In this document: positions 316-22,384 of the stretch, piece after piece
Position numbering within the stretch: position 1 is the first letter of the stretch
Layout of the letters: each line of letters starts with the position of its first letter
Virus record (IMG/VR): IMGVR_UViG_3300025723_000026
Coordinates: 12,301 to 76,300 of that record
Reading direction: 5' to 3' (one strand)
Source: a virus
Lineage: Duplodnaviria > Caudoviricetes
Length of the DNA stretch: 64,000 bases
Notes under the pieces: model-generated
The model's input: the letters and a program-made list of their open reading frames with translations, nothing else
The model's database searches: none
Told to the model about the DNA's origin: nothing
Position numbers and translations under genes: made by a program

Positions 316-752
316 TACGACTTAATACTAGGCGAATTTGCACCTGATTGCAACTGAATAATTTCGATCCCATAAAATTTAAATATATCCAAAGCACGCA
401 TATCCTTAGTGTAATTATCTCGATAGACAACTTTCTTTATTCCATGGGAAATAATTTGTCGTGCACAACATGAACATGGTAACAACGTACATGCAATCAA
501 TCGACCTTCCCCGCGCTTAAACAAGGAGAGTAAGTTTGTTTCAGCATGTAAGATATACGGGCGCCTTCCATCCCGATCAGCCCAAAAGTAATCTGACATT
601 GTTGTACCAGGCGCTAGACCATTATACGCTACCCCAAGTACTCTATTATCATAATCTAAAGCACATGCCCCTACTTGAACGTAGGGGTCCTCACTTCTCA
701 TAGCAGCTGTCTCAGCTAAAGCTAAAGCATATTGTTCCCAAGAAGGTCTCAT
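315..752 (-). CDS. dCMP (deoxycytidylate) deaminase
   Basis: RSEDPYVQVGAC, GYNG-like AYNG, HAE and PCxxC zinc-binding motifs. Confidence 0.92.
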   Translation of the reverse strand: MRPSWEQYALALAETAAMRSEDPYVQVGACALDYDNRVLGVAYNGLAPGTTMSDYFWADRDGRRPYILHAETNLLSLFKRGEGRLIACTLLPCSCCARQIISHGIKKVVYRDNYTKDMRALDIFKFYGIEIIQLQSGANSPSIKS

Positions 753-1524: not shown

Positions 1525-2226
1525 TTATTCGAATTTATTTTTTAAATTAAAATATACAGATTTGCAAAGACTAAAGAATTCTCTATCTGATAAGTCCATC
1601 TTTGCCTGATTATACTGTTTTAACACCAATTGGATATTATCTTTGTGATAACCTAACTTGGAATCTATCCTATCGACCGATACTGTGCTTATCTTCGCAT
1701 CGGCACATAAAAACAACGGCTGCCCTGATAAAGCACATTTTTTATCTTGTGCATTGTATAACGTACAAATATCGTCTGGCGTAATGCTTACTTCAAGATC
1801 TCTGAGCTTAGCATTATTAATAATGTTTGTCCAAAGTCTCGCAGGTACATATTGATGTATTAATTTTGGTTGATTTTTGCGTATACCTAGTTGACGAACT
1901 CGAAGATGTATAAACTGAACAGGCTTATTGAGAGCATCGGCGCAAATTTGCGCACCATGTTTTGAATAATGATCTTTTATAAATTCATCATCTGAAACTA
2001 CATGTTGTATTCTCCATTTTTCGATGCGTTTAAGGTGGCCGCATTGTCGGCATCCCTTGCCTTTAAGGTGCCTGTAAGCATTTTGTTTAAACTGACCATG
2101 CTTGCTACATATAGCTATAATATCTTTTGTATGACCGCTGTACTTGCATAGGGAATAATCGTATAGATTACCGTGAACCGTTATAGCGTCCTTTATGAAC
2201 TGATCAGTATCATACCCTACTTTCAT
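1525..2226 (-). CDS. Free-standing homing endonuclease (Zn-ribbon N-terminus, HNH-like C-terminus)
   Basis: N-terminal HGNLYDYS..C.KHG.F.Q....HL.G.GC..C module; C-terminal CALSG...SVDRIDSKLGYHKDNIQLV...N.AK. Confidence 0.8.
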   Translation of the reverse strand: MKVGYDTDQFIKDAITVHGNLYDYSLCKYSGHTKDIIAICSKHGQFKQNAYRHLKGKGCRQCGHLKRIEKWRIQHVVSDDEFIKDHYSKHGAQICADALNKPVQFIHLRVRQLGIRKNQPKLIHQYVPARLWTNIINNAKLRDLEVSITPDDICTLYNAQDKKCALSGQPLFLCADAKISTVSVDRIDSKLGYHKDNIQLVLKQYNQAKMDLSDREFFSLCKSVYFNLKNKFE

Positions 2227-5487: not shown

Positions 5488-5542
5488 ACTCCTATAATAA
5501 TTTAATAATTAAATAAGGCAAGCAAGCATTTGTCTATTTAAG

Positions 5543-5616
5543 TGCGCCAGGAGAGACTTGAACTCTCGACTCCAAGCTTAAAAGGCTCGTACTCTGACCA
5601 ACTGAGTTACTGGCGC
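5543..5616 (-). tRNA. tRNA-Lys(TTT), CCA not encoded
   Basis: Acceptor GCGCCAG/CTGGCGC; arm CGAGC-CTTTTAA-GCTTG; GTTCAAG T-loop. Confidence 0.93.
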
Positions 5617-5617
5617 G

Positions 5618-6196
5618 TTAAACATTAAAAGACTGACATTCTTTTAATGTTTTTAAAATTGTAAGATTGTTGAGTTGCTTCGTTATAATATCAATTTTAG
5701 CTCGTTGTACATTATATGCAATAGGATTCTTCGGATCGAGGTATAAATTATATTCTGTTAAAAAGAAATCGGGAAAATAATTATGCGTAGTACCATTAAG
5801 ATCTGTCCACGGTATTGGTTGCGTTGGCCGTATCCACGCGATATTAAGTTCATCCAGTCTTTTTGCTAGCGCTTCTTCCCAAGATGAGTCGAGTAGCACT
5901 TCTGTACCGTCTTTGCATTTATATGTACGAGTGGATCTTACTAGTCGACGGTGTGTAGACTTAAGAGCTATAGCTCTTAATTTGTCCTTCGTTTCTTGTG
6001 TTTGTATACGGCCTTTAGTATTGTATTTTGCATTCTCATATTTTCCCTCAGCGTGTGCTTTTCTAACTCTCTCACTAGCACCTATTTTAATACTCTCGCT
6101 GTGCAATTTTTTATTTAAGTCAATATTTGGATTTTCTGAGCACCATCTCATGTGAATACTATTCAATACCTCTTTATCACAATACTTACATTTCAT
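5618..6196 (-). CDS. Putative homing endonuclease (NUMOD3-like motif plus PD-(D/E)XK/TnsA-like domain)
   Basis: QTQETKDKLR NUMOD3-like motif; SSWE..LA..LD, YFPDFFL..YNLYLDPK. Confidence 0.72.
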   Translation of the reverse strand: MKCKYCDKEVLNSIHMRWCSENPNIDLNKKLHSESIKIGASERVRKAHAEGKYENAKYNTKGRIQTQETKDKLRAIALKSTHRRLVRSTRTYKCKDGTEVLLDSSWEEALAKRLDELNIAWIRPTQPIPWTDLNGTTHNYFPDFFLTEYNLYLDPKNPIAYNVQRAKIDIITKQLNNLTILKTLKECQSFNV

Positions 6197-6248
6197 ATAA
6201 GTATTTATTAATGAAGGCGAGTATAATACGATTATTGTTTAAATAAAA

Positions 6249-6325
6249 TGGTACAACCGGAGGGACTTGAACCCCCATAAGCCGAGGTAGAAGCTCGGTA
6301 CTTTATCCAGTTAAGTTACGGTTGC
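6249..6325 (-). tRNA. tRNA-Arg(TCT)
   Basis: Arm CCGAG-CTTCTAC-CTCGG; CCA end. Confidence 0.92.
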
Positions 6326-6403
6326 ATAAATTTATAAAAAAGGCGGGTGTGATACGTCCCCGTTATTCAAACGAATATATTAGCTTAAGAAAAATTTTAC
6401 AAG

Positions 6404-6994
6404 CTAATTTTTAAATTCTTTTAAAAAGATCTCCCAATCAGTAATATTATGCTTATTACGAATATAGAAGGTTGATGGAAGCTCTCTCGGAATTATAGGC
6501 TGCCGTACAAGCTTTAGTCCAGCCTCTTCAGGTGTACGTGATCCTTTCTTTGAATTGACTTCCTTGTGACAGAGAACGCAATTCGTCCAATCAGTCTTAC
6601 CACCTCGGGTACGAGGAATGACATGATCGATATTGGCTTCAGATTTTGAAAGCTTCTTATTAGTATATTGACAGGTGCCGTTATCTCGAGTCCAGATATT
6701 ACTATGGGTAAACTTCGGACGTTTCATTGGTACCTTATCATACTCACAGAGAACAATAACAGTAGGAATCTTAATGCTACCACGAGTTGTTTTAATATAC
6801 GAGGCCTTTTCATCAAAAGGCAAATTAACCCAATCCGACCATTTGAGTGGTACCATCATATCATATCCTCGAATATCTAAAGCTGTTGCTGTATTCTGAT
6901 ACATCATGACAAAAGCATCAGCTGGAGATTTTGTATGAATGGCTTGCCAGTTTCTATTAAGAACTAGCACTGTCTCCTGTTTAAGGTACGACAT
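6404..6994 (-). CDS. HNH endonuclease (McrA-like)
   Basis: VLVLN.NWQAI N-terminus; RDNGTCQY..NIDHVIPRTRGGKTDWTNCV..H..N; start set at MSYLKQ because the longer ORF overlaps tRNA-Val. Confidence 0.9.
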   Translation of the reverse strand: MSYLKQETVLVLNRNWQAIHTKSPADAFVMMYQNTATALDIRGYDMMVPLKWSDWVNLPFDEKASYIKTTRGSIKIPTVIVLCEYDKVPMKRPKFTHSNIWTRDNGTCQYTNKKLSKSEANIDHVIPRTRGGKTDWTNCVLCHKEVNSKKGSRTPEEAGLKLVRQPIIPRELPSTFYIRNKHNITDWEIFLKEFKN

Positions 6995-7025
6995 ATATGT
7001 ATATTTAATTAATTGTAAAGAAAGA

Positions 7026-7101
7026 TGGTACACCAGAAGGGATTCGAACCCCTGACATTCTGCGTGTAAGGCAGACGCTACTACCACTGAGCTACTGGTG
7101 C
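7026..7101 (-). tRNA. tRNA-Val(TAC)
   Basis: Arm TCTGC-CTTACAC-GCAGA; CCA end. Confidence 0.95.
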
Positions 7102-7172
7102 GTTATTATTTTTTTAATATATCAACAAAATGCATGATATGCAAGAAAAATAGAGTAAGATTAAATAATCAT

Positions 7173-7628
7173 ATGCCAATTAGATTAAAAGATTCTAGTA
7201 CGTGGCTGGCTGATGTAATAACTTCGTTCATTGGATCGTGGACATTTATTATTGTACAATCCATTATACTAACAATTTGGATTTTAATCAATGTTCTTAA
7301 TTTGACTCATTTTGATCCTTATCCATTTATTCTTATGAATCTTTTCCTGTCTTTTCAGGCAGCCTACGCTACCCCGCTCATCCTTATGTCTTCCAACAGA
7401 CAAGCCGAGCGCGATAGATTACACATGCAACAAGAGCATGAAATTACAGAAGAAGATCACATTATAATAAAAGATCTTAAAAAGATTTTAGATGACCTAC
7501 AGGAAGATGTTCTCTTAAGTAGACTATCACTTGAACAGCATAAGAGACTAGAGGCCGAACACGAAGAATTAAAAACGGGTATAACCGAAATAAAAGAATT
7601 ACTTCTCAATAAGAAGAGAAAAATTTAA
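7173..7628 (+). CDS. DUF1003-like membrane protein
   Basis: FIGSW.FI...W...N...FDPYPFILMNLFLSFQAAY..PLILMS.NRQ..RDR signature; TAAATA just upstream of the ATG. Confidence 0.85.
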   Translation: MPIRLKDSSTWLADVITSFIGSWTFIIVQSIILTIWILINVLNLTHFDPYPFILMNLFLSFQAAYATPLILMSSNRQAERDRLHMQQEHEITEEDHIIIKDLKKILDDLQEDVLLSRLSLEQHKRLEAEHEELKTGITEIKELLLNKKRKI

Positions 7629-7643
7629 AAATGTCTAGTTGAT

Positions 7644-7717
7644 TGGAGCGGGTAGAGAGAATTGAACTCTCGCATCAAGTTTGGTAAACTCGCAGGCTAC
7701 CATTACATCATACCCGC
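7644..7717 (-). tRNA. tRNA-Gly(ACC), rare A34 anticodon
   Basis: Gly-type body GCGGGTA/TACCCGC, U73, CCA; arm CGAGT-TTACCAA-ACTTG. Confidence 0.9.
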
Positions 7718-7720
7718 ATT

Positions 7721-7805
7721 TGGTACTCATGGTCGGGGTCGAACCGACACTCCTTACGGAACAGGATCCTAAATCCTGCGCGGCTGCCAGTTACGCCACA
7801 TGAGC
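7721..7805 (-). tRNA. tRNA-Leu(TAG)
   Basis: Arm CAGGA-TTTAGGA-TCCTG; long variable arm; CCA. Confidence 0.95.
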
Positions 7806-7813
7806 ATTAAAAT

Positions 7814-7889
7814 TGGCTGCCAAGGTAGGGATCGAACCTACGACCTAGAAGTTAACAGCTTCCCGCTACTACCGCTGAGCTACTTGGCA
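7814..7889 (-). tRNA. tRNA-Asn(GTT)
   Basis: Loop CTGTTAA; acceptor TGCCAAG/CTTGGCA; G73, CCA. Confidence 0.94.
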
Positions 7890-7900
7890 TTTAAAATTTA

Positions 7901-7975
7901 TGGTCGGGCACCTCGGTGCTGCCCCGAGTATTTCCTGGTCCCAAACCAGGCGGATTGCTGTCTTCCTCGTGCCCG
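7901..7975 (-). tRNA. tRNA-Pro(TGG) with atypical T-loop (GGCAGCA)
   Basis: Acceptor CGGGCAC/GTGCCCG; arm CCTGG-TTTGGGA-CCAGG; T-stem CTCGG/CCGAG; CCA. Confidence 0.85.
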
Positions 7976-8005
7976 TTAATATTATTTTATCTTTTTATTT
8001 ATAAA

Positions 8006-8081
8006 TGGCTACGGAGGAAGGGCTCGAACCTTCAACCGGCGGATCCAAATTCCGCTGCGCTACCAATTGCGCCACTCCGTA
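8006..8081 (-). tRNA. tRNA-Gln(TTG)
   Basis: Arm GCGGA-ATTTGGA-TCCGC; acceptor TACGGAG/CTCCGTA; CCA. Confidence 0.92.
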
Positions 8082-8732
8082 TTAAGTCTTATATTTACAA
8101 TTATTGAAATGAAACCGTGCCATAGTATTTTTAGCGCCTTCCTTTAAGCAATAAGGGCATTTAATTTTTTGTCGCTTAAGACCTCTATTACGCCGCCCGC
8201 CAAACGACGGTGACTCTTTGTTTCGCTGTAAAAGTGATTGGCGTATTTTTTCTTTATGCTCTTCAGTTTTATTACCTGATGCAGCTTTTCGTGCATGTTC
8301 ACGCTGCAATTCAGGGTTTTTTCTAGCAAAATTATTTGCTATCATTTTTTTTCTCGTTTCGTCACTTGCTTTGCGATTAGTGGCTTTTAAACGTAAAATA
8401 GCCTTTGTTTCATCAGTATGTCGTTTATTTTGAAACGTTAAATTATTTTTTTCTTTTGATCCGTAACCGCCACCGGGCATTAAATTGTAAGTATCAGATC
8501 GTAGACAAAAATCAGCATCAACAATTTCTGCTTCTCTATAAAGCATCTCTTCTTTGGAGTCAAAATATTCTAATATTTCTTTTGTAAAGCACGCCTTACC
8601 ATATTTGTTAATATCTCTTATAAGAGCTTTACCTGAGCCAAAATAATAATCGTTAATATCGCGGGACTGATGTACACCTATATAAAACTTATTATTAATG
8701 TTATTTGTAATTTTATACAAGTAATATATCAT
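8082..8732 (-). CDS. GIY-YIG homing endonuclease with NUMOD3 repeats (Seg-like)
   Basis: YYLYKITN.IN.KFYIG.H...D.YFGSG; HTDETKAIL and KTEEHKEKIR NUMOD3 motifs; late promoter upstream of MIYY. Confidence 0.92.
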   Translation of the reverse strand: MIYYLYKITNNINNKFYIGVHQSRDINDYYFGSGKALIRDINKYGKACFTKEILEYFDSKEEMLYREAEIVDADFCLRSDTYNLMPGGGYGSKEKNNLTFQNKRHTDETKAILRLKATNRKASDETRKKMIANNFARKNPELQREHARKAASGNKTEEHKEKIRQSLLQRNKESPSFGGRRNRGLKRQKIKCPYCLKEGAKNTMARFHFNNCKYKT

Positions 8733-8776
8733 ATAATAATATTTATGTAAAGGTAGCACATTAATCAATTAAAGAC

Positions 8777-8849
8777 TGGAGAATAGCGGGATCGAACCGC
8801 TGACATTCTGCTTGCAAAGCAGACACTCTACCAACTGAGTTAATTCCCC
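8777..8849 (-). tRNA. tRNA-Ala(TGC), CCA not encoded
   Basis: G3:U70 pair; arm TCTGC-TTTGCAA-GCAGA. Confidence 0.95.
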
Positions 8850-8856
8850 GTAAAAA

Positions 8857-8934
8857 TGGAGCGTCAGGTAGGATTTGCACCTACGGCTTTAGGGTTTTGC
8901 AGACCCTTCCTTTGGGCTTCTCAGGCACTGACGC
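8857..8934 (-). tRNA. tRNA-Cys(GCA)
   Basis: Arm AGGGT-CTGCAAA-ACCCT; U73; T-loop TGCAAAT; CCA. Confidence 0.9.
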
Positions 8935-8938
8935 ATAT

Positions 8939-9029
8939 TGGCGGATAGGGTAGGATTCGAACCCACGGTACCCTTCCGGGTACTTCTGATTTCAAGTCAG
9001 ATGCAATAGACCAACTCTGCCACCTATCC
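8939..9029 (-). tRNA. tRNA-Ser(TGA)
   Basis: Arm TCTGA-CTTGAAA-TCAGA; long variable arm; G73, CCA. Confidence 0.95.
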
Positions 9030-9037
9030 GTAAAAAT

Positions 9038-9211
9038 TTATTGACAATGATAATTGAGGTAACGTTGAGCGGCTTTAGCTGTTAAACCACCTTTACCTTT
9101 TAATGAACGTGCTTTAGAACATGTAAGCTTACCTTTAACCTGACGTTTAAGAATGCCTGGGTGACGTGGTTCATCGATACTTTTTTCTGTTACATATTCC
9201 TTAAAAGTCAT
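9038..9211 (-). CDS. Small basic protein (57 aa) with capsid-targeting-like N-terminus
   Basis: Not in ORF track: MTFKEYVTEKSIDEPRHPGILKRQVKGKLTCSKARSLKGKGGLTAKAAQRYLNYHCQ; TAAATA upstream. Confidence 0.75.
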   Translation of the reverse strand: MTFKEYVTEKSIDEPRHPGILKRQVKGKLTCSKARSLKGKGGLTAKAAQRYLNYHCQ

Positions 9212-9223
9212 AAAGTTATTTAA

Positions 9224-9313
9224 TGGAGGAAGCTGAGGGATTCGAACCCTCGGAGGCGATAAAGCCTCGGTTGTTTAGTAAACAACTCTCTTAAACCGCT
9301 TGAGTAAGCTTCC
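9224..9313 (-). tRNA. tRNA-Ser(ACT), rare A34 anticodon
   Basis: Arm GTTGT-TTACTAA-ACAAC; long Ser-type variable arm; acceptor GGAAGCT/AGCTTCC; CCA. Confidence 0.9.
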
Positions 9314-9319
9314 ATAAAA

Positions 9320-9392
9320 TGGTGTCTCTTGAAGGTAACGCTCCTTCTCATCATCGTTCGTAGCGACGAGTCTAAAGTCTTTTAGAAGAGAC
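9320..9392 (-). tRNA. Atypical tRNA-Arg(ACG)
   Basis: Acceptor GTCTCTT/AAGAGAC plus ACCA; arm CGTCG-CTACGAA-CGATG; aberrant D-arm and T-loop AGCGTTA. Confidence 0.7.
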
Positions 9393-9398
9393 ATAAAA

Positions 9399-9473
9399 TG
9401 GTCAGGAGGCTGGGATTTGCACCCAAACCGATTCTTTCACAGAGAATAATGCTACTATTACACCACAACCTGA
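9399..9473 (-). tRNA. Atypical tRNA-His(GTG)
   Basis: Arm ATTCT-CTGTGAA-AGAAT; two acceptor mismatches; A73; T-loop TGCAAAT; CCA. Confidence 0.75.
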
Positions 9474-9479
9474 TAAAAA

Positions 9480-9556
9480 TGGCGGAGTTAACGGGACTCG
9501 AACCCGCACTCACTCGCGTGACAGGCGAGTGCTTTAACCAATTAAGCTACAACTCC
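9480..9556 (-). tRNA. tRNA-Asp(GTC)
   Basis: Arm CTCGC-CTGTCAC-GCGAG; G73, CCA. Confidence 0.95.
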
Positions 9557-9561
9557 GTTCG

Positions 9562-9635
9562 TAGGACTAGATGGACTCGAACCATCAACCCTTTCGTTAT
9601 CAACGAAATGCTCTGACCGGTTGAGCTATAGTCCT
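9562..9635 (-). tRNA. tRNA-Ile(GAT), CCA not encoded
   Basis: Arm TTTCG-TTGATAA-CGAAA; acceptor AGGACTA/TAGTCCT. Confidence 0.94.
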
Positions 9636-9644
9636 GTAGAAAAT

Positions 9645-9720
9645 TGGTGGCAGGAGCGGGAATCGAACCCGCAATCTTTGCGTTATGAGCGCAACGACTT
9701 AACCGTTTGTCCATCCTGCG
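9645..9720 (-). tRNA. tRNA-Met(CAT), possibly initiator type
   Basis: Loop CTCATAA; C1xC72 mismatch as in formylatable initiators, but no triple G-C anticodon stem. Confidence 0.88.
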
Positions 9721-9731
9721 TCAAAAAAAAA

Positions 9732-9806
9732 TGGTGGAACCGTCGAGACTCGAACTCGAAACCAATTCGTTAAAAGCGAACTGCTCTACCATTGAGCTAC
9801 GATTCC
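9732..9806 (-). tRNA. tRNA-Lys(TTT), second copy
   Basis: Loop CTTTTAA; acceptor GGAATCG/CGGTTCC; CCA. Confidence 0.92.
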
Positions 9807-9813
9807 GAGAATA

Positions 9814-9895
9814 TGGGCAGAGAAGGACTCGAACCTTCGAACTCCGAAGAGAGGAGATTTACAGTCTCCGGCAATTGCCGCTATGCGATCTACCC
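9814..9895 (-). tRNA. tRNA-Tyr(GTA), CCA not encoded
   Basis: Arm GGAGA-CTGTAAA-TCTCC; long variable arm. Confidence 0.94.
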
Positions 9896-9907
9896 TTAAA
9901 AAATGGT

Positions 9908-10321
9908 TTATGACGGTTTTGAACGTCTTTTATGGTAATGAAAATCTGCATGACAGTTTCTACAAAGAGGTATACACTTTTTAATTTCTTCCTGTAAGAG
10001 CTGCGTGTTATATCTATTAACAAAATAAGATATTTCATTTGCTTTCGTACTCGGATCTACATGATGTAAATCTAAACACCAAGGACGATCTTCATTACAC
10101 TTTGTGCATTTAAGTGTAGCTTTATATTCAAGAAATTTATTTCTAAAATTAGCGTTCGATTTATACGCACTAGCAATATATTTTTTCTTATTTGCGTCGT
10201 AATGTTTTCTAGCGTACTTGTTTTTTGCACATTGCTTACAATAGGGAAAATAACCATGCTTTGTATTTTTATAATATGAATTAAGTGACTTTGTCTCTTT
10301 ACATTGACTACAGGTTTTCAT
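9908..10321 (-). CDS. HNH homing endonuclease with N-terminal Zn finger
   Basis: CSQCKETK...YCKQC; CTKC.E...LDLHHVDP..K...CIPLCRNCH..FH. Confidence 0.88.
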   Translation of the reverse strand: MKTCSQCKETKSLNSYYKNTKHGYFPYCKQCAKNKYARKHYDANKKKYIASAYKSNANFRNKFLEYKATLKCTKCNEDRPWCLDLHHVDPSTKANEISYFVNRYNTQLLQEEIKKCIPLCRNCHADFHYHKRRSKPS

Positions 10322-10357
10322 GTCTCCAAATATTTATTGTTTTGGAGGCTATTTTTA

Positions 10358-10434
10358 TGGCACGGAGAGTAAGAATCGAACTTACCCAGTCGGATTTGGA
10401 GTCCAACTCGCCTATCCTTGGAACATTTCTCCGC
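10358..10434 (-). tRNA. tRNA-Trp(CCA)
   Basis: Arm TTGGA-CTCCAAA-TCCGA; G73, CCA. Confidence 0.9.
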
Positions 10435-10450
10435 ATATAAAAATAAAAAA

Positions 10451-10533
10451 TGGAGCCAGTGGAGGGACTCGAACCCCCGTTGTTTGTATACCGCTTTACA
10501 AAAGCGGTGCTGTCGCCGCTGAGCCACACTGGC
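10451..10533 (-). tRNA. tRNA-Thr(TGT) with 12-nt variable region
   Basis: Arm CCGCT-TTTGTAA-AGCGG; acceptor GCCAGTG/CACTGGC; CCA. Confidence 0.9.
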
Positions 10534-10610
10534 ATATTTTAATTTGACAATATGAGTAGTACGCCACGGCCGGTCAAATTAGCGACCGCGGCTCAACAAC
10601 CAACTAGAAA

Positions 10611-10622
10611 TTTCAAGGAACA
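10611..10622 (-). promoter_or_regulatory. boxA-like antitermination element in the tRNA-array leader
   Basis: TGTTCCTTGAAA resembles rrn boxA TGCTCTTTAACA; preceded by a CCCC-TTAAT-GGGG hairpin. Confidence 0.55.
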
Positions 10623-10658
10623 AAAAACCCCATTAAGGGGCTTTCGAATATACTTATG

Positions 10659-10686
10659 ATTATACATACTATCGTGCAATCTACAA
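10659..10686 (-). promoter_or_regulatory. sigma70-type promoter driving the main tRNA array
   Basis: TTGTAG-N16-TATAAT with TG immediately 5' of the -10. Confidence 0.65.
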
Positions 10687-10703
10687 GCTAAAAATAAATT
10701 TTT

Positions 10704-10877
10704 TTATTCGTGATGAAGTTGCGAAGTAGGTAGAGGACGATAGGAGCGAATAAGCTTTCTAACACCACTAATTGTTATTACCGAGCCCATAATAAAAACA
10801 ATGAGGACGCATCCAAGGATTATCCTCATTTTAAGGATTTGAATAAAGTCCTGCTCTCGTTGTTGTTCTAATCTCAT
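10704..10877 (-). CDS. Small single-TM protein (57 aa)
   Basis: Not in track: MRLEQQREQDFIQILKMRIILGCVLIVFIMGSVITISGVRK... Confidence 0.55.
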   Translation of the reverse strand: MRLEQQREQDFIQILKMRIILGCVLIVFIMGSVITISGVRKLIRSYRPLPTSQLHHE

Positions 10878-10878
10878 T

Positions 10879-11133
10879 TTAAGCAGCTACACTCCTCGAA
10901 AAGTTCTTCACACAGCTCCTACTACCAATAGGCTCATAATACATCTTTGTTTCCTTAAAGGATTGAGGAGACATAATTTGAATCTCAGCTCCTGTCTTGT
11001 GAGAAAAAACCATACGACCAAGTCTTGGCTTTACGACGTTATGCTTATGAGCACATGACGAGCAAAATACCGTATTAGGGAGTACTTCAAGTCGTTCAGG
11101 TTCAATAATATTTGTACAAGTTCTACAGTTCAT
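10879..11133 (-). CDS. DksA/TraR-type C4 zinc-finger protein
   Basis: MNCRTCTNIIEPERLEVLPNTVFCSSCA matches CxxC..I...RL..LP....C..C. Confidence 0.75.
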   Translation of the reverse strand: MNCRTCTNIIEPERLEVLPNTVFCSSCAHKHNVVKPRLGRMVFSHKTGAEIQIMSPQSFKETKMYYEPIGSRSCVKNFSRSVAA

Positions 11134-11134
11134 A

Positions 11135-11245
11135 TCACCAAAATTTATGAATAAAATGAATAGCGATATAAATGACACTAGTCCATAGTGCTAAGCTGAG
11201 TAAAAATGCCGTTAACCAGGATAGAAGAATTTGCCAGGATTTCAT
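11135..11245 (-). CDS. Small membrane protein (36 aa)
   Basis: MKSWQILLSWLTAFLLSLALW...; GAGG RBS. Confidence 0.5.
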   Translation of the reverse strand: MKSWQILLSWLTAFLLSLALWTSVIYIAIHFIHKFW

Positions 11246-11246
11246 A

Positions 11247-11402
11247 TTATTTCCTCTTCTTTCCTGCATCTGAGCGTTGAGCTCGAGACTTAACGCCGAA
11301 CAACCGCCGACGTGCGGCGGTTTCCTTTTGCTCTTTTGCTGCAAAACTAGTCTTAGAAGTATTAGCTCCCCAGACTTTTACGATGTTGTTTTTTGTTGCC
11401 AT
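11247..11402 (-). CDS. Small basic protein (51 aa)
   Basis: MATKNNIVKVWG...RSDAGKKRK; longer track ORF overlaps tRNA-Leu. Confidence 0.6.
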   Translation of the reverse strand: MATKNNIVKVWGANTSKTSFAAKEQKETAARRRLFGVKSRAQRSDAGKKRK

Positions 11403-11416
11403 AATTGTAATGAAAT

Positions 11417-11504
11417 TGGTAGTGCGGGTGGGATTTGAACCCACAATGTTTCTAATGTAAGGGATTTTAAGTCCCTTGCGTTTCACCAATTTCGCCACCG
11501 CACC
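11417..11504 (-). tRNA. tRNA-Leu(TAA)
   Basis: Arm AGGGA-CTTAAAA-TCCCT; long variable arm; A73, CCA; no intron. Confidence 0.95.
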
Positions 11505-11519
11505 ATATTTTCTAAATTG

Positions 11520-11843
11520 TCAATACCAGTTTAGATAGACTGGTTGATTATTGCAATCTAAAAATTCATTTTGTTTAAACTCTACACACTTATATGTGCC
11601 TATCTCCTCAAGAAAAAGTTTATCTCCTGATGTCATAGGATTTACATATCGCATACCATCTCTAGTAATTGGAGTTTTATGAACAATATGACCAAGTTCG
11701 CACGCTGCTTTGAGAAGAGTTTTTTCTTTACCAGTTCTTGATACTTTCTTTTGAGCACGTTCAATGACCCGGTGCATCTTCTTAAAAGATCTTTCTAGAT
11801 CTTTAGCTTTAGTATCGATATCCTTAAGAATGTATTGTTTCAT
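11520..11843 (-). CDS. Hypothetical protein
   Basis: 107-aa ORF between two tRNAs. Confidence 0.65.
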   Translation of the reverse strand: MKQYILKDIDTKAKDLERSFKKMHRVIERAQKKVSRTGKEKTLLKAACELGHIVHKTPITRDGMRYVNPMTSGDKLFLEEIGTYKCVEFKQNEFLDCNNQPVYLNWY

Positions 11844-11850
11844 TTTAAAA

Positions 11851-11925
11851 TGGTGCGACAGGTCAGAGTTGAACTGACTTCCTTCCCGTTATGAGCAGGC
11901 CGCTCGACCGTTGAGCTTCTATCGC
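11851..11925 (-). tRNA. tRNA with CAT anticodon (elongator Met or Ile2)
   Basis: Loop CTCATAA; acceptor GCGATAG/CTGTCGC; CCA. Confidence 0.85.
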
Positions 11926-12069
11926 GTTAAATTATTCTTATATATTACCGGAAAAGAAAATATGTTTCAAGCAGCAAAAGCACAACACCGAAAATAATTG
12001 AAGCCTTTATTACTGTAGGATGATTCCAGATATCTTGAAGAAAGATACGAATAGGATTAAGCTTAATCA

Positions 12070-12240
12070 TTAAGGTAGCTGCTCCTCAGGAGGATTCAAA
12101 AGATCCTTAATCTCAGCGTTAATGCGCTTGATCTCATCGCCAAAAGCTTTAGCTGTAGACTTCTTACGTAACTTAGTTTCTTCGAGTTCTTGAACGAGTT
12201 GGTATACCTGGGCTTCTCTGGATGGTTTTGGGTTTGACAT
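12070..12240 (-). CDS. Small coiled-coil protein (56 aa)
   Basis: Not in track: MSNPKPSREAQVYQLVQELEETKLRKK...; promoter TTGCTT-N16-TATAAT just upstream. Confidence 0.6.
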   Translation of the reverse strand: MSNPKPSREAQVYQLVQELEETKLRKKSTAKAFGDEIKRINAEIKDLLNPPEEQLP

Positions 12241-12289
12241 TACTGATGATTATACATATATTTTTGTGTAAAGCAAGCGATTTTTATAG

Positions 12290-12381
12290 TGGTACTCCTG
12301 CCCGGTTCTGCCCCGGGATCGCGCCCTCATCTAGGACTTCTGGTGTATAAGACCAGTGTTTTACTGTTAAACTACAGGAGC
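12290..12381 (-). tRNA. tRNA-Ile(TAT) with 22-nt variable arm and atypical T-loop
   Basis: Acceptor GCTCCTG/CAGGAGT, A73, CCA; arm CTGGT-CTTATAC-ACCAG; extra hairpin GTCCT-AGATG-AGGGC; T-arm CCCGG-GGCAGAA-CCGGG. Confidence 0.82.
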
Positions 12382-12382
12382 A

Positions 12383-13186
12383 TTATGTATCTATAATAGA
12401 TTCTGAACTCGAATCATCAAGCTTTTTTCTCTGAATATTTGTATAAAGCTGTTTTAATTTACTAATAAATTCTTTAAAATACTTTTGATAGGCTGGATTG
12501 GACTTATTACGATAGAGTGTATTAATGAATCCGTTATAGTCAGATAGAAATTGTGGTACAACAACTTCAGAAATCTTTGTAGAGTTAATGAGGTTTGCTA
12601 TTGACTTGAGAAGAAGCATACGTCTGCTCTTCCAAAAGGTTCTTCCTGAACCTGATTTACTACGACGATAGAGTTCTTTTTGCTGAAGATCAATTTCGTG
12701 CAAGATTGCAGCTATCTGAACAGGGAACTCATTTTGTGCTGTATAATAATCTCTCTTACTACCTACCTTATTGCCAGCTGTTGCTTTGAGATAGGCTTCT
12801 GTTGGTTTTTTATAATTCTTAGCATGAAAAAGCTCATGCACTATCTTATTACGTTTTGTATTATTCGGTAGAGCACTATACTTTTGATAGTTTAATGAGA
12901 TAGTATCTGTTTTTCTATCATAGTCAGCATCACCAAGACTCTCGTCAAAATTGACAGATACATATGCTTTACTTTCTTTACGTTTTACCTCATCATAGTA
13001 CTTTATTGACCCCAAGATCATTGTACCGTCTTGCTGTAATCTCTTTGCATACAATTCCTTAGGATCATTATTTCCTATCACTGTAGGATTAAAGAACTTT
13101 AAGTATGTATTATATACAAGACTAACCTGTCTCTCTTCTTCATCTGAGAGAGTACTCTCTACTATAAAGGATTTAAAGGGAAGCAT
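12383..13186 (-). CDS. Hypothetical protein with HExxH (zincin-like) motif
   Basis: IVHELFH; N-terminus MLPFKSFIVE resembles capsid-targeting leaders. Confidence 0.7.
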   Translation of the reverse strand: MLPFKSFIVESTLSDEEERQVSLVYNTYLKFFNPTVIGNNDPKELYAKRLQQDGTMILGSIKYYDEVKRKESKAYVSVNFDESLGDADYDRKTDTISLNYQKYSALPNNTKRNKIVHELFHAKNYKKPTEAYLKATAGNKVGSKRDYYTAQNEFPVQIAAILHEIDLQQKELYRRSKSGSGRTFWKSRRMLLLKSIANLINSTKISEVVVPQFLSDYNGFINTLYRNKSNPAYQKYFKEFISKLKQLYTNIQRKKLDDSSSESIIDT

Positions 13187-13195
13187 TAAAGATAC

Positions 13196-13378
13196 TTATC
13201 GACCCTGCTTTATCTTTCTATCTAACGCCTTTTGCTTGCGCTTACGCTTTTGACCTGATGACTCAAAATATCGGTGATTACGTACTTCCTCTAAAACACT
13301 ATCAGAATCTATTTTAGTTTTAAGACGTCTTAAAACACGATCAATATCTTCACCTTTTCTTACTTCTACCGAATGCAT
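13196..13378 (-). CDS. rpsU: Ribosomal protein bS21 homolog
   Basis: VEVRKGEDIDRVLRRLK.K.....LEEVR..RYFE....KRKRK pattern; 60 aa, basic C-terminus. Confidence 0.85.
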   Translation of the reverse strand: MHSVEVRKGEDIDRVLRRLKTKIDSDSVLEEVRNHRYFESSGQKRKRKQKALDRKIKQGR

Positions 13379-13381
13379 ATT

Positions 13382-13744
13382 CTATTGCTGATGTAAAGCT
13401 AAATCAACAAGCCTATCATACTGATCCTCTTCTATCTCATGATGCTTACCCTCGTCCTTGTATACTACAAAGTAATCATAATAATAACGATCACCATCAC
13501 TATACCTATCATCCCATACAACATAGACTCTACCGTTGTTAATACCTACATGTGCTCTAGCTTGATTTCCAATTGAAACATATTGCTCAACCCAACTTTT
13601 ATCTTGTAACTGTTTTTGTAATTCTTTATGTTCAGCTTCTGGTTCATGTACTTTAGCTGAAGAAGGCATTTGTTCACGGAAATCTGAATCTGATTCCTGA
13701 TAAATTCTTGTGTACGCTTCGGCAATAAGCTGTTCGTCGTTCAT
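13382..13744 (-). CDS. Hypothetical late protein
   Basis: ATAAATA upstream; MNDEQLIAEAY leader. Confidence 0.7.
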   Translation of the reverse strand: MNDEQLIAEAYTRIYQESDSDFREQMPSSAKVHEPEAEHKELQKQLQDKSWVEQYVSIGNQARAHVGINNGRVYVVWDDRYSDGDRYYYDYFVVYKDEGKHHEIEEDQYDRLVDLALHQQ

Positions 13745-13759
13745 ATGTCGAATTATTTA

Positions 13760-14134
13760 TTAAAAATCATCGTTGTTTTCTATAATAGCGGTCTCTGCTT
13801 TTAGTTTTTCAAGATGAGCTACAATTTCTTGGGTTACAAGCTCTTTTGCTTCTTCCTCCATCCATCCATAATGACAAATAGCTTCATTACTCTTTCGTTC
13901 TTCAATAAGATAACAGAGTTCACTGAGCTCAGAGAAAATAGCTTTGACTCTCTGATTATGTCCACGAACAAAATCTGCACGAGATAGCTCATGATTAATG
14001 ATTCTATTCTGTACATACCAGTTATAGATATGCTTATTGAATTCCTCTGTTAGTTCGATTTCTTCTAAGGAATATTCGTTATTCATTTTCAGGTAATTTC
14101 CAAATAATATATCCAGCTCTCTCATCGTATTCAA
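13760..14134 (-). CDS. Hypothetical protein
   Basis: 124-aa ORF in operon. Confidence 0.6.
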   Translation of the reverse strand: MNTMRELDILFGNYLKMNNEYSLEEIELTEEFNKHIYNWYVQNRIINHELSRADFVRGHNQRVKAIFSELSELCYLIEERKSNEAICHYGWMEEEAKELVTQEIVAHLEKLKAETAIIENNDDF

Positions 14135-14279
14135 GAGAAAGCTTCATAAATTTACTATATAGACTCCAGGCAGGCCCTGCAATAAGCTTACGAGTTATTT
14201 CACTCCAATCAGTACGGCAGACGATCTTCCAACAAATATTACCGAGATGGTAAAATAGTAAAGCTAAAAATTTATTCAT
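14079..14279 (-). CDS. Hypothetical protein
   Basis: 66-aa ORF in operon. Confidence 0.55.
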   Translation of the reverse strand: MNKFLALLFYHLGNICWKIVCRTDWSEITRKLIAGPAWSLYSKFMKLSLEYDERAGYIIWKLPENE

Positions 14280-14292
14280 GTAGATATATAAT

Positions 14293-14532
14293 CTACTTTT
14301 TTTGTTTACCGAGCTTCTTTACAAAGAAGTTAATCTTTGCCTGTTCCATAGTCTTCTCGACAACAATCCAGCGAAGTGGTTTTCCTTCGTGCTCGTTTTG
14401 CTCATTAAAAATAGCTCTACGAATAATTGATTCACGTTCATCGTAAGTAGGCTCATACTTAAAGACAATAGTCCTAGTATACTTTGTTTCGTTCTTAGGT
14501 TTTGATTTTGCTTTTAATGGTAATTTAGCCAT
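14293..14532 (-). CDS. Hypothetical protein
   Basis: 79-aa ORF after promoter TTGTAA-N17-TAGTAT. Confidence 0.65.
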   Translation of the reverse strand: MAKLPLKAKSKPKNETKYTRTIVFKYEPTYDERESIIRRAIFNEQNEHEGKPLRWIVVEKTMEQAKINFFVKKLGKQKK

Positions 14533-14576
14533 TTCTATATACTATAGGAATTATATTTTTTTACAAGCTTAAAAAG

Positions 14577-14603
14577 TGCTCCAGGTGCTCAACCAGAAAC
14601 TAA
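14577..14603. repeat. Inverted repeat arm in hsp20 3'UTR (partner 15136-15160)
   Basis: tgctc-c-aggtgctcaacc-a-gaaactaa matches the reverse complement of 15136-15160. Confidence 0.9.
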
Positions 14604-14611
14604 ATTAAACT

Positions 14612-15097
14612 TTATTTAACCTCGATACTAATATTGTGTACCTCCGGTTTCACTGTCGGGACCTTAACTCGTAGTAACCCGTCGGTGTATGTTGATGAGA
14701 TGTTTTTAACATCCGTATTGTCATTAAGAGAGAAGGACAATTGTCCCTTTCTACGGCTAATGCCTTTACGATGGAAGACTACTGTCTCATCATATTCAAC
14801 TTCTTCCTTATCAACAGCGATCACGAGCTTACCCTCCTTGACCGATACGTTGATATTATCCTTTCCTACACCAGCCAATGCTACTTCGATGTAGTAGGTG
14901 ATTGGGTTGCCGTCTGGATCGGTTTCTGATACAATGTTATAAGGATAGACTGCATTTGGAATATCAAATGCTTTATCGAAGTCCTTAATGACATCGGTTA
15001 GCCACTTATCGTTAAACAGCGCAGGGAGGTGACTGAATCCCGTCGCTGTAGCAGGAATGATCCTGCCAATCGTGTATGGTGTTATTGTGTTTGTCAT
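14612..15097 (-). CDS. Small heat-shock protein (Hsp20/alpha-crystallin family)
   Basis: YPYNI...Y.IEVALAG....NI.V.V..G.L.I...HRKGISRR....FSL......A/STYTDGLL.V.VP; AGGAG RBS. Confidence 0.95.
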   Translation of the reverse strand: MTNTITPYTIGRIIPATATGFSHLPALFNDKWLTDVIKDFDKAFDIPNAVYPYNIVSETDPDGNPITYYIEVALAGVGKDNINVSVKEGKLVIAVDKEEVEYDETVVFHRKGISRRKGQLSFSLNDNTDVKNISSTYTDGLLRVKVPTVKPEVHNISIEVK

Positions 15098-15135
15098 ATG
15101 TTTTCTCCTTTGTTAAGCGAGTTAATATGTTCACT

Positions 15136-15160
15136 CTAGTCTCGGTTGAGCACCTGAGCA
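15136..15160. repeat. Inverted repeat arm in hsp20 5'UTR (partner 14577-14603)
   Basis: ctagtctcggttgagcacctgagca, 4 nt downstream of a TATAAATA promoter on the minus strand. Confidence 0.9.
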
Positions 15161-15164
15161 ATAT

Positions 15165-15172
15165 TATTTATA
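15165..15172 (-). promoter_or_regulatory. T4-type late promoter
   Basis: Exact TATAAATA; related TAAATA motifs precede many late genes. Confidence 0.75.
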
Positions 15173-15237
15173 TAGGCTATTCTAAAAAATAGCAATTATT
15201 TTTTATACCGATAATAAAAGTAAAGTGTTATAAGATA

Positions 15238-15468
15238 TCAAACAATACCAAAACAATAATTTACAAATAACCAGAGCTGAAATCCTTTACCTAAGAGATA
15301 AAACATTGCAAACACATACCCTGCTAAAACAAGATAAATCATCGCAGCAGAAAAATCTTTAGCAGATTTTGTTTTAAAGAGTTTATAGAGCTGAGGGAAC
15401 CAACTTACTGCCCAACATATAGACATGAGAAACCCGCTTATTTCAATGGCATCTCTCGTAATCTGCAC
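15238..15468 (-). CDS. PQ-loop / SemiSWEET-family membrane protein, possibly truncated by a TGA
   Basis: SWFPQLYKLFKTKSAKDFS PQ-loop motif; frame continues 13 codons past the TGA. Confidence 0.8.
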   Translation of the reverse strand: MQITRDAIEISGFLMSICWAVSWFPQLYKLFKTKSAKDFSAAMIYLVLAGYVFAMFYLLGKGFQLWLFVNYCFGIV

Positions 15469-15482
15469 GTAAATATTTAAGC

Positions 15483-15641
15483 ATGCTGACAGAATATATA
15501 TTCGAACTTGTGGAGAATGAAACGCCTAAGCTTCTTAATGTTGTAGCTACAACAAAGGAAGAAGCTGAAAAGAAGCTTAAAGCTCGTTACGGAGAACAAG
15601 TAGATTTAAAGTTATTAGATCTTAGAAGACTTATCTACTAA
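15483..15641 (+). CDS. Small hypothetical protein (52 aa)
   Basis: Not in track: MLTEYIFELVENETPKLLNVVATTKEEAEKKLKARYG...; TAAATA upstream. Confidence 0.55.
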   Translation: MLTEYIFELVENETPKLLNVVATTKEEAEKKLKARYGEQVDLKLLDLRRLIY

Positions 15642-16241
15642 ATTTATAGCAACATCGTGGAAATTAATTTGCTTTAGTAGACCATTTACTATTCGTATTT
15701 GTAACTTCACTCTTTCTTCTAAGCTGTATGACTTGACAGGTGTCTCAACCGTTACACTAGGGATATCACGTTTCCTTAATGCTCTTTCAAGTGTCCCTGC
15801 TGTTGGTAGATGGCCACGCACTATAACACCTTTATCAGTCTTATCTCCTATTGCCGACTTTGCCAATGGTACATCCAATTCAGCTAAAACAGCTTGAACT
15901 TTGTCCTTCATACCTGGAGAGCAATAAGCATATACTTCATCAGTTGTATCATCTTCATGAAGTGCTATAACCAATCTTGGCTGAACTTCTTCAATTTTAG
16001 CTAGAATTTCATCTTCTATTGGTAAAGAATCCTTTTTATCAAAATGTCTATTAGGATCAACTCCATCCAATCTTCTCTTACCTGTTGGATTAACATCAGC
16101 AATTACAACAATGTTCTCTTTTCCTTTATACCTTTTAGCTGCTATATTACCAGCTGGTTCATCACCGTGAATACCGCCAATCAAAACAACAGGTCCTTCT
16201 GTTGTCGCTAGAATAGATTCTACTAGAATATCAAACTTCAC
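15615..16241 (-). CDS. M14 / succinylglutamate desuccinylase-aspartoacylase family metallopeptidase
   Basis: GGIHGDE (HxxE), DPNRHF, LHED, TVETP motifs. Confidence 0.82.
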   Translation of the reverse strand: MKFDILVESILATTEGPVVLIGGIHGDEPAGNIAAKRYKGKENIVVIADVNPTGKRRLDGVDPNRHFDKKDSLPIEDEILAKIEEVQPRLVIALHEDDTTDEVYAYCSPGMKDKVQAVLAELDVPLAKSAIGDKTDKGVIVRGHLPTAGTLERALRKRDIPSVTVETPVKSYSLEERVKLQIRIVNGLLKQINFHDVAINLVDKSSKI

Positions 16242-16258
16242 AGAATTATTTAAGTTAA

Positions 16259-16933
16259 TTACACCTTTATCTTTTCTCTATAAGGCTTAAAATGTTCTTT
16301 AAATCCCTTAACTATAGCGTCATAGTTCTTTAGCTCTTTTGTATTGAGCTTTTTATTAGCTTTGAGAGAATTAAAGCCTGTAGTAAGATATGCTTGAAGC
16401 TCATCGTTAAAAACAGCTTTTGTATATCCTAGTTCATAAAGAACATCTTCTGCCTTTTTACGAACTGATTTATTAAGCTTTTTAAGAATATCGTTTGCTT
16501 TCTTTTTATATTCTTTATCTAAAAAGTATAGAGCGTGACAACATTCATGTTCAATTGTATTAGTGTCGTTATTTGATCCAATGAGATAGTAGTTACGACT
16601 TTCAATTTTACCTACAATCTTATCATGAATATCGGTTATAATACTATCGTAAATATTAAAGTCCTCTACCTCATTATCATATAGATCTGAAATAACAGGA
16701 CCAGGTATATTAAACCCACCCCAATCTATAGGATAGGTAAAAGAGCCTTCATTACCTTTTGAATAGATAGCCATGAGCTCTACTAAGGTAAAGCGCTTAC
16801 CGCGGATTTGTTTAAAAGGAGATTCGTAGAATTCTTGTACCCTGCAAAACGTCATAGCAAGATCATACATATCCTCTATCTGACAAAGATAAATTCCTGG
16901 GTATAGATTTTTAAGAGAATATTTGATCTTCAT
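16259..16933 (-). CDS. Hypothetical protein with HExxH motif
   Basis: F.RVQEFYESP, IEHECCHALY, DELQAY. Confidence 0.7.
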   Translation of the reverse strand: MKIKYSLKNLYPGIYLCQIEDMYDLAMTFCRVQEFYESPFKQIRGKRFTLVELMAIYSKGNEGSFTYPIDWGGFNIPGPVISDLYDNEVEDFNIYDSIITDIHDKIVGKIESRNYYLIGSNNDTNTIEHECCHALYFLDKEYKKKANDILKKLNKSVRKKAEDVLYELGYTKAVFNDELQAYLTTGFNSLKANKKLNTKELKNYDAIVKGFKEHFKPYREKIKV

Positions 16934-16944
16934 TTTATATTTAT

Positions 16945-17019
16945 TGGCATCCTCGACGGGATTCGAACCCGTGCTAAGCCCGTGAAAGGGGCTGGTGCTA
17001 ACCGCTACACTACGAGGAC
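16945..17019 (-). tRNA. tRNA-Glu(TTC)
   Basis: Arm AGCCC-CTTTCAC-GGGCT; G73, CCA. Confidence 0.95.
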
Positions 17020-21951: not shown

Positions 21952-22157
21952 CACTTAATCTCTAGCTTTCGCTAAAGCGTGGACTATATCTTCACCCTCG
22001 CGGGTGTTGGATGCTCAAGCCGGTACTCCGGTAGTCTCTGCACCTTCCTATTTCTAGGCTCGGCTCAGTATTGCCATGTTGCTTTCGCAATTTAGGTTCC
22101 ACTGAATTCTTCCAATTTATACATTATCTATTGCTAGATAAGTCGACCTGCTTGTTG
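21952..22157 (-). mobile_element. Group I self-splicing intron (206 nt, no ORF) in the tmRNA T-loop
   Basis: P/Q/R/S cores AAATTGGAAGAA, AATACTGAGCC, GTGCAGAGACTA, AAGATATAGTCC; P1 TCGAT/GTCGA with U:G at the 5' splice site; terminal G; five GNRA hairpins. Confidence 0.93.
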
Positions 22158-22384
22158 ATCGAACCCCTGTGTTTATACTGTTACGTTAATATCTCTACAC
22201 GCTTAGATAAGTTTAGCATTTGATTGACTACAGGCTGCTATGGCTTACCGACCTATCTTTTTTAGTCTGCCTATTATAGTGAAGAGTCTACAACCACCCC
22301 CTGTACTATGTTTTCTAAGTATCACAGGTACTACTTTAACCTATTATTATTTCCAAAAGCTTAATAGGATCTGCTTCTGGTTCC

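Follow-up and report, generated by a model that had tools for sequence, protein, structure and literature searches.

The stretch of DNA analysed here, called the window throughout (64,000 nucleotides, GC 36%), belongs to a linear viral contig of 76.3 kb that comes from an uncultured, AT-rich, T4-like phage and is estimated to hold about 35% of its genome. The contig encodes ribonucleotide reductase (RNR), dCMP deaminase, Hsp20 and T4-like fibre and baseplate proteins. The window carries a large tRNA array with homing and HNH endonuclease genes scattered among the tRNAs, and within this array lies a tRNA-Gly gene with the anticodon ACC. The features of this region are as follows.

5542..17019, minus strand: tRNA array, 21 tRNAs called by ARAGORN and 2 found by Rfam only, all on one strand
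7644..7717, minus strand: tRNA-Gly, anticodon ACC (A34 at 7684, T on the plus strand), 74 nt, CCA encoded (ARAGORN; Rfam RF00005)
7721..7805, minus strand: tRNA-Leu(UAG), 3 nt upstream of the tRNA-Gly (ARAGORN; Rfam, 48.2 bits)
9224..9313, minus strand: tRNA-Ser(ACU), the second A34 tRNA of the array (ARAGORN; Rfam, 51 bits)
9645-9720: tRNA-Met(CAU)
11854-11925, minus strand: tRNA with anticodon CAU (Rfam, 50.5 bits; no ARAGORN call)
12293-12381, minus strand: tRNA with anticodon UAU and a long variable region (Rfam, 47 bits; no ARAGORN call)
5618-6196, 6404-7087, 8082-8768 and 1525-2226, minus strand: homing/HNH endonuclease genes, at least four, in or beside the tRNA array and the RNR genes
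21960-22184, minus strand: group I catalytic intron (Rfam RF00028, 77.7 bits, full-length model)

The tRNA-Gly(ACC) is a real gene, an unusual one-base variant of a known phage tRNA family. ARAGORN, Rfam and direct reading of the sequence all support the clean cloverleaf, Gly identity and ACC anticodon that a previous sequence-only reading had described, and the match to RF00005 (56.5 bits, E 3.4e-10, gathering score 29) spans the full model from 1 to 71. As read from the sequence, the acceptor stem GCGGGTA/TACCCGC supplies G1-C72, C2-G71 and G3-C70, the 3′ end consists of U73 followed by an encoded CCA, the anticodon stem CGAGT/ACTTG closes the loop UU-ACC-AA, G18G19 is present and the T-loop is TTCAATT. 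A single mismatch in the D-stem, U11.C24, is constant in all relatives of the gene and is thus a family trait and no sign of decay. Bacterial GlyRS relies on an identity set of U73, G1-C72, C2-G71, G3-C70, C35 and C36; the window tRNA carries this set in full, and the same elements are invariant in the family alignment described below.

Each codon box has a single tRNA in the array: those for Val, Ala, Thr, Leu(CUN) and Ser(UCN) carry U34, those of the two-codon boxes G34, and those for Gly and Ser(AGY) A34. The tRNA-Gly(ACC) had been called the only Gly tRNA in the window, and it is: none of the other ARAGORN tRNAs or the two Rfam-only tRNAs (CAU and UAU) is a Gly tRNA. It is likewise the only one among the 23 tRNAs of the contig, as ARAGORN and Rfam found no second Gly tRNA in the 76.3 kb that represent about 35% of the genome, and ARAGORN found no tRNAs in the 12.3 kb that precede the window on the contig. 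Because the tRNA-Gly lies only 3 nt downstream of tRNA-Leu(UAG) on the same strand, the two are probably made on one precursor transcript; the other neighbour, a DUF1003 membrane-protein gene, is on the opposite strand. The tRNA-Ser(ACU), which the sequence-only reading had missed, places A34 in the split AGN box, and ARAGORN and Rfam detected no Ser(GCU) in the window array. Its ACT anticodon is kept, with compensatory stem changes, in the relatives L002 (15394-15485) and L003 (20314-20404). Two further tRNAs of the array are unusual in other respects. There are two CAU genes (11854-11925 and 9645-9720), one of which could be an initiator tRNA or an Ile tRNA of the lysidine type; and the UAU tRNA at 12293-12381 has a non-canonical T-arm, CCCGG-GGCAGAA-CCGGG, with GG in place of T54 and T55, which recurs on a UCC tRNA of the metagenome contig L405 (1238-1308, minus strand).

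Glycine is the most used amino acid in the 70 long ORFs of the contig, with 1737 codons divided into GGT (61%), GGA (21%), GGC (12%) and GGG (7%); overall, only one codon is used more than GGT, and AGA is the main Arg codon (41%). The largest local demand for GGU decoding is in two neighbouring fibre-like genes, both with 23-24% Gly, mostly GGT, and with PHROG tail-fibre matches.

33433-35217, plus strand: fibre-like gene, GGT/GGC/GGA/GGG counts 82/20/34/9
35256-37208, plus strand: fibre-like gene, GGT/GGC/GGA/GGG counts 85/12/45/8

The GGT runs previously noticed at 33970-34040 and 36400-36480 are real. From such runs the tRNA had been proposed to be a GGU decoder tailored to late structural genes, a proposal of which the GGT dominance stands and the tailoring does not: Gly makes up 11.6% of structural genes, where GGT accounts for 64% of Gly codons against 57% in the remaining genes, so that the bias is genome-wide and gives no sign of late-gene tailoring.

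Control loci found in IMG/VR with GCC and TCC patterns include, among the matches listed, a family of phage tRNA-Gly(GCC) genes. The window gene aligns without gaps to 11 phage tRNA-Gly(GCC) genes from these matches at 80-86% identity, and the mean column identity of the alignment is 90%. Members such as L313 1516-1589, L303 1417-1490 and L221 2863-2936 have the same length, an identical acceptor stem and D-arm, the U32/A37/A38 loop and an encoded CCA, and reside in endonuclease-rich tRNA arrays of uncultured IMG/VR phages; L313 also shares the T-loop TTCAATT. The window gene has the family backbone (acceptor, D-arm with U11.C24, T-arm) and differs from it in A34 for G34 and in G30-C40 for C-G. 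Position 34 is G in 11/11 of the relatives among the matches listed and A in the window alone, which marks A34 as a derived singleton in the family; judged by this alignment, the window gene is a G34-to-A34 transition variant of the tRNA-Gly(GCC) family and not an ordinary member. Covariation across the family is strong, with 95% of cells paired, 9 pairs changed on both sides and 0/500 shuffles reaching such a level. Pair 30-40 is a compensatory G-C in the window and C-G in all other members, indicating that the window lineage stayed under structural selection.

Orthologues of the window gene are scarce. Relatives of the phage were located through the RNR large subunit, and their tRNA arrays are very different from that of the window, even in L001, where it differs completely beside an RNR region of 92% nucleotide identity; such reshuffling fits the endonuclease genes in and beside the window array. 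The five contigs nearest by RNR (L001, L002, L003, L005 and L015) contain no homologue of the window tRNA-Gly. IMG/VR has no match to a 30-nt pattern that surrounds the anticodon and leaves position 34 open (N), and neither IMG/VR nor the metagenome contigs yielded an A34 orthologue. Among GenBank phages, BLAST searches with the window tRNA and with two of the ACC families gave GCC genes, TCC genes or no match at all, and revealed no cultured phage that carries Gly(ACC). A 23-nt version of the pattern matched one short metagenome contig, L405 (VFSW01336528.1), in which the UCC tRNA at 1238-1308 nearly matches the window tRNA-Gly over its 5′ two-thirds, with positions 8-46 almost identical, G30-C40 included, but has U34. 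We rejected this tRNA as a clean orthologue, since its U34, A73/G1.U72 acceptor and non-canonical GGCAGAA T-loop mark it as chimeric or odd; its U34 suggests that the wobble base is labile in the sub-lineage of the window gene. A T-arm-anchored pattern, also discarded, gave only two TCC genes of a different backbone.

One way to explain these observations is that A34 has no adaptive meaning: in a fast-turnover array, an ordinary tRNA-Gly(GCC) would have undergone a recent G34A substitution, selectively neutral or slightly deleterious, or the A would be a minority variant or an error of the consensus. The invariant G34 of the listed relatives, the lack of an A34 orthologue in our searches and an array full of homing endonucleases, completely different in L001, are all as expected from such an event, and family members in the GGT-rich phages L246 (63%) and L295 (59%) retain GCC. 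Against it, the rest of the gene is intact and carries its own compensatory pair, the clade also maintains Ser(ACU), and an error falling precisely on the wobble base of the sole Gly tRNA is a priori very unlikely.

The distribution of the anticodon among phages bears on the same question. We scanned IMG/VR with a generic pattern for a canonical tRNA-Gly with a YTACCAA loop, for which the list of matches is complete, and obtained 95 stretches, 86 of them on separate contigs confirmed by ARAGORN as tRNA-Gly(acc) and comprising 42 distinct sequences. These genes resemble that of the window in the TTACCAA loop and the Gly identity set. The closest among the ACC genes found, at 84% identity, is L141 1827-1901 on a 304-kb contig rated 100% complete, and the different backbones (at most 84% identity) imply that the window gene and the other ACC genes have independent origins. 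By backbone, 12 of the 42 distinct genes are nearer GCC, 5 are nearer TCC and 25 are ambiguous. A repeat search for one ACC family that allowed any base at position 34 found A in 21/21 members, drawn from many different samples, plus a single extra match, a TCC gene on an unrelated backbone. A second, array-embedded family (L081 type versus L106 type) retains ACC despite many substitutions, some of them compensatory. Some families consist of solitary genes, whereas the window gene lies in an array.

We then compared arrays of at least 8 tRNAs with control loci, which are a sample among the matches listed to the GCC and TCC patterns (at least 120 each); contigs entered these counts without correction for relatedness. 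GCC occurs in 0/17 ACC arrays compared with 63/81 control arrays among the matches listed, and in 0/15 compared with 14/32 TCC-selected control arrays drawn in the same way. The window array likewise has no GCC. Gly(UCC) accompanies ACC in 15/17 ACC arrays, in contrast to the window, where the contig (about 35% of the genome) has no second Gly tRNA. Ser(ACU) is found alongside Gly(ACC) in 4/17 ACC arrays and in 1/81 control arrays among the matches listed, and the window shares this combination. ACC loci, like the window, are AT-rich and GGT-rich: median GC is 36% against 40% in control loci (p 2e-16) and the GGT share is 54% against 42% (p 6e-8), with tests that ignore contig relatedness and controls taken among the matches listed. 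The retention of GCC in L246 and L295 shows that codon usage favours the switch to ACC and does not by itself force it.

In cellular genomes the anticodon is exceedingly rare, as the sequence-only reading had held. A stricter pattern that recovers 61 of the IMG/VR loci matched 24 stretches in 185,579 species-representative bacterial and archaeal genomes; ARAGORN confirmed 22, nearly all in metagenome-assembled genomes (MAGs) and several in phage-like arrays. In a few MAGs (L414, L418, L425, L428 and L429) the tRNA-Gly(ACC) lies between tRNA-Tyr and tRNA-Thr, the place where the thrU-tyrU-glyT-thrT cluster of bacteria normally has Gly(UCC), and these genes are either rare cellular U34A variants or assembly errors. 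The literature accordingly describes Gly-tRNA(ACC) as 'universally absent' (bioRxiv 10.64898/2026.05.15.725136; PMC4928997).

In phages, then, ACC recurs, is maintained and takes the place of GCC, while cells almost never have it. A proposed search for ACC in related phages had a divided outcome: the relatives nearest by RNR lack the gene and those of the GCC family have G34, and yet the anticodon recurs across IMG/VR. Sporadic ACC in cellular MAGs, some of it at the usual Tyr-Gly-Thr position, does resemble the kind of accident that a neutral change or consensus error would produce. As this change has persisted in many phage lineages independently, to the exclusion of GCC, we consider an accidental A34 in the window unlikely, though it is the main rival of the functional reading given next.

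We lean instead towards a functional role, in which the window gene stands in for GCC as a functioning decoder of GGU, its A34 probably unmodified. A G34-to-A34 transition in a phage tRNA-Gly(GCC) would have produced an ACC gene that took over the role of GCC. Charging by GlyRS is still expected, because the Gly identity set is complete and does not include position 34. A34 would most likely stay unmodified and pair in Watson-Crick fashion with GGU, the codon for most of the Gly in this phage, and weaker reading of the other GGN codons may be possible through the 'undiscriminating' A34 of tRNA-Gly or some superwobble. ACC may bring a fitness benefit. Engineered tRNA-Gly(ACC) is charged by GlyRS (PMC4928997), and tRNA-Gly(ACC) is reported to be active in elongation, to lack modification in E. 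coli and to be poorly accepted by a deaminase (bioRxiv 10.64898/2026.05.15.725136; PMC4928997). U is the preferred partner of unmodified A34, and the other bases pair with it less well (PMC11066159); A34 tRNA-Gly reads all four codons according to Boren et al. 1993, as cited in bioRxiv 10.64898/2026.05.15.725136. The engineered E. coli and human versions (Boren et al. 1993, as so cited; Saint-Leger et al. 2016, PMC4928997; Raval et al. 2026 preprint) have the same anticodon on a native Gly backbone and are charged, translation-active and unmodified or poorly deaminated; they are laboratory mutants, whereas the window gene is natural and known here from its sequence. Several points count against the decoder reading: over-expressed Gly-tRNA(ACC) is reported to have slowed E. 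coli growth (bioRxiv 10.64898/2026.05.15.725136), A34 is a singleton in its family, our searches of IMG/VR and metagenome contigs gave no A34 orthologue, the relatives nearest by RNR lack the gene, and L246 and L295 keep GCC.

The nearest cellular parallel is the bacterial tRNA-Arg(ACG) with TadA, the sole A34 tRNA gene routine in bacteria, which replaces its G34 isoacceptor as Gly(ACC) does. That tRNA depends on I34, and A34 of the window tRNA could similarly be deaminated to inosine, by host TadA or by an unseen phage enzyme, and read GGU, GGC and GGA. One tRNA would then cover three of the four Gly codons, and E. coli is reported to modify some engineered ANN tRNAs of two-codon boxes (bioRxiv 10.64898/2026.05.15.725136). 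The tests of engineered tRNA-Gly(ACC) argue against efficient deamination, however, as it is reported to stay unmodified in E. coli and to be a very poor substrate of ADAT (bioRxiv 10.64898/2026.05.15.725136; PMC4928997). No phage tRNA deaminase gene was found in the 76.3-kb contig, where the sole CDA-fold gene is a dCMP deaminase (PHROG 174, E 1e-33; 20 bits to the TadA model against a cut-off of 150 bits). The conserved Ser(ACU) further argues against broad A34 deamination here, because I34 in that tRNA would misread AGA, the codon for 41% of Arg. On the published tests, the type of the only deaminase and the conservation of Ser(ACU), we regard inosine as improbable.

Two other proposals depart from an unmodified decoder of GGU. 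The sequence-only reading had suggested that A34 lets the phage tRNA-Gly escape a host anticodon nuclease or tRNA-targeting defence that recognizes G34 or U34 tRNA-Gly. A near-complete private set of phage tRNAs is what would be expected if the host tRNA pool were attacked, but the window holds nothing else that bears on the idea, escape does not predict the link of ACC to AT-rich, GGT-rich genomes, and we know of no tRNA-Gly-specific anticodon nuclease; this explanation seems to us very improbable. The tRNA might otherwise serve mainly as a private glycine carrier for a Mom-type DNA-modifying enzyme, and not as a codon reader, given that Mom uses Gly-tRNA(Gly) (PMC13219725) and that 4/40 Gly(ACC)-bearing IMG/VR contigs encode a Mom-family protein. 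Yet a search of the 76.3-kb contig, which covers about 35% of the genome, for the Mom family PF25680 gave nothing even at E<=1, the neighbours of the gene are DUF1003, tRNA-Leu and homing endonucleases with nothing transferase-like among them, and the gene itself is canonical and sits inside a decoding array beside tRNA-Leu. Three ACC-bearing records that are at least 90% complete, including the 304-kb L141 contig, also lack Mom. Since Mom accepts all E. coli tRNA-Gly isoacceptors (PMC13219725), ACC is not needed for it, and we think a carrier role very improbable.

Decoding by unmodified A34 may extend beyond this gene. It is possible, although we put it forward tentatively, that AT-rich phages repeatedly and adaptively adopt unmodified A34 tRNAs, with Gly(ACC) for GCC and Ser(ACU) for GCU, as a strategy for U-ending codons that cells avoid, and that in the window's phage G34A arose anew and independently, in a lineage already maintaining Ser(ACU). 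Reviews and a 2026 preprint (bioRxiv 10.64898/2026.05.15.725136) single out tRNA-Gly(ACC) among the A34 tRNAs of four-codon boxes as missing from every domain of life, and ask why, given that engineered versions work. We found no description of phage Gly(ACC) in the searchable literature, where the phage-wide pattern seems to be unreported. Intact natural phage copies show that the ACC anticodon is viable in nature, and if its adoption is adaptive, these phages would be a natural system for studying why cells exclude ANN anticodons. The window gene, beside its conserved Ser(ACU), and the dozens of ACC genes found elsewhere in place of GCC provide test material for whether A34 is unmodified and which GGN codons it reads, and for whether ACC pays only with extreme GGU usage or only during a short infection. 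In annotation, such genes should not be dismissed as errors. Within this pattern the window gene adds one more independent origin and no new principle.

A34 is seen with other anticodons as well. Gly(ACC)-bearing arrays include Ser(AGA), Leu(AAG) and Pro(AGG), and L405 has a tRNA-Phe with the anticodon AAA at 574-648 (minus strand), in the company of Ile(UAU), Leu(UAA), Gly(GCC) and the odd UCC tRNA.
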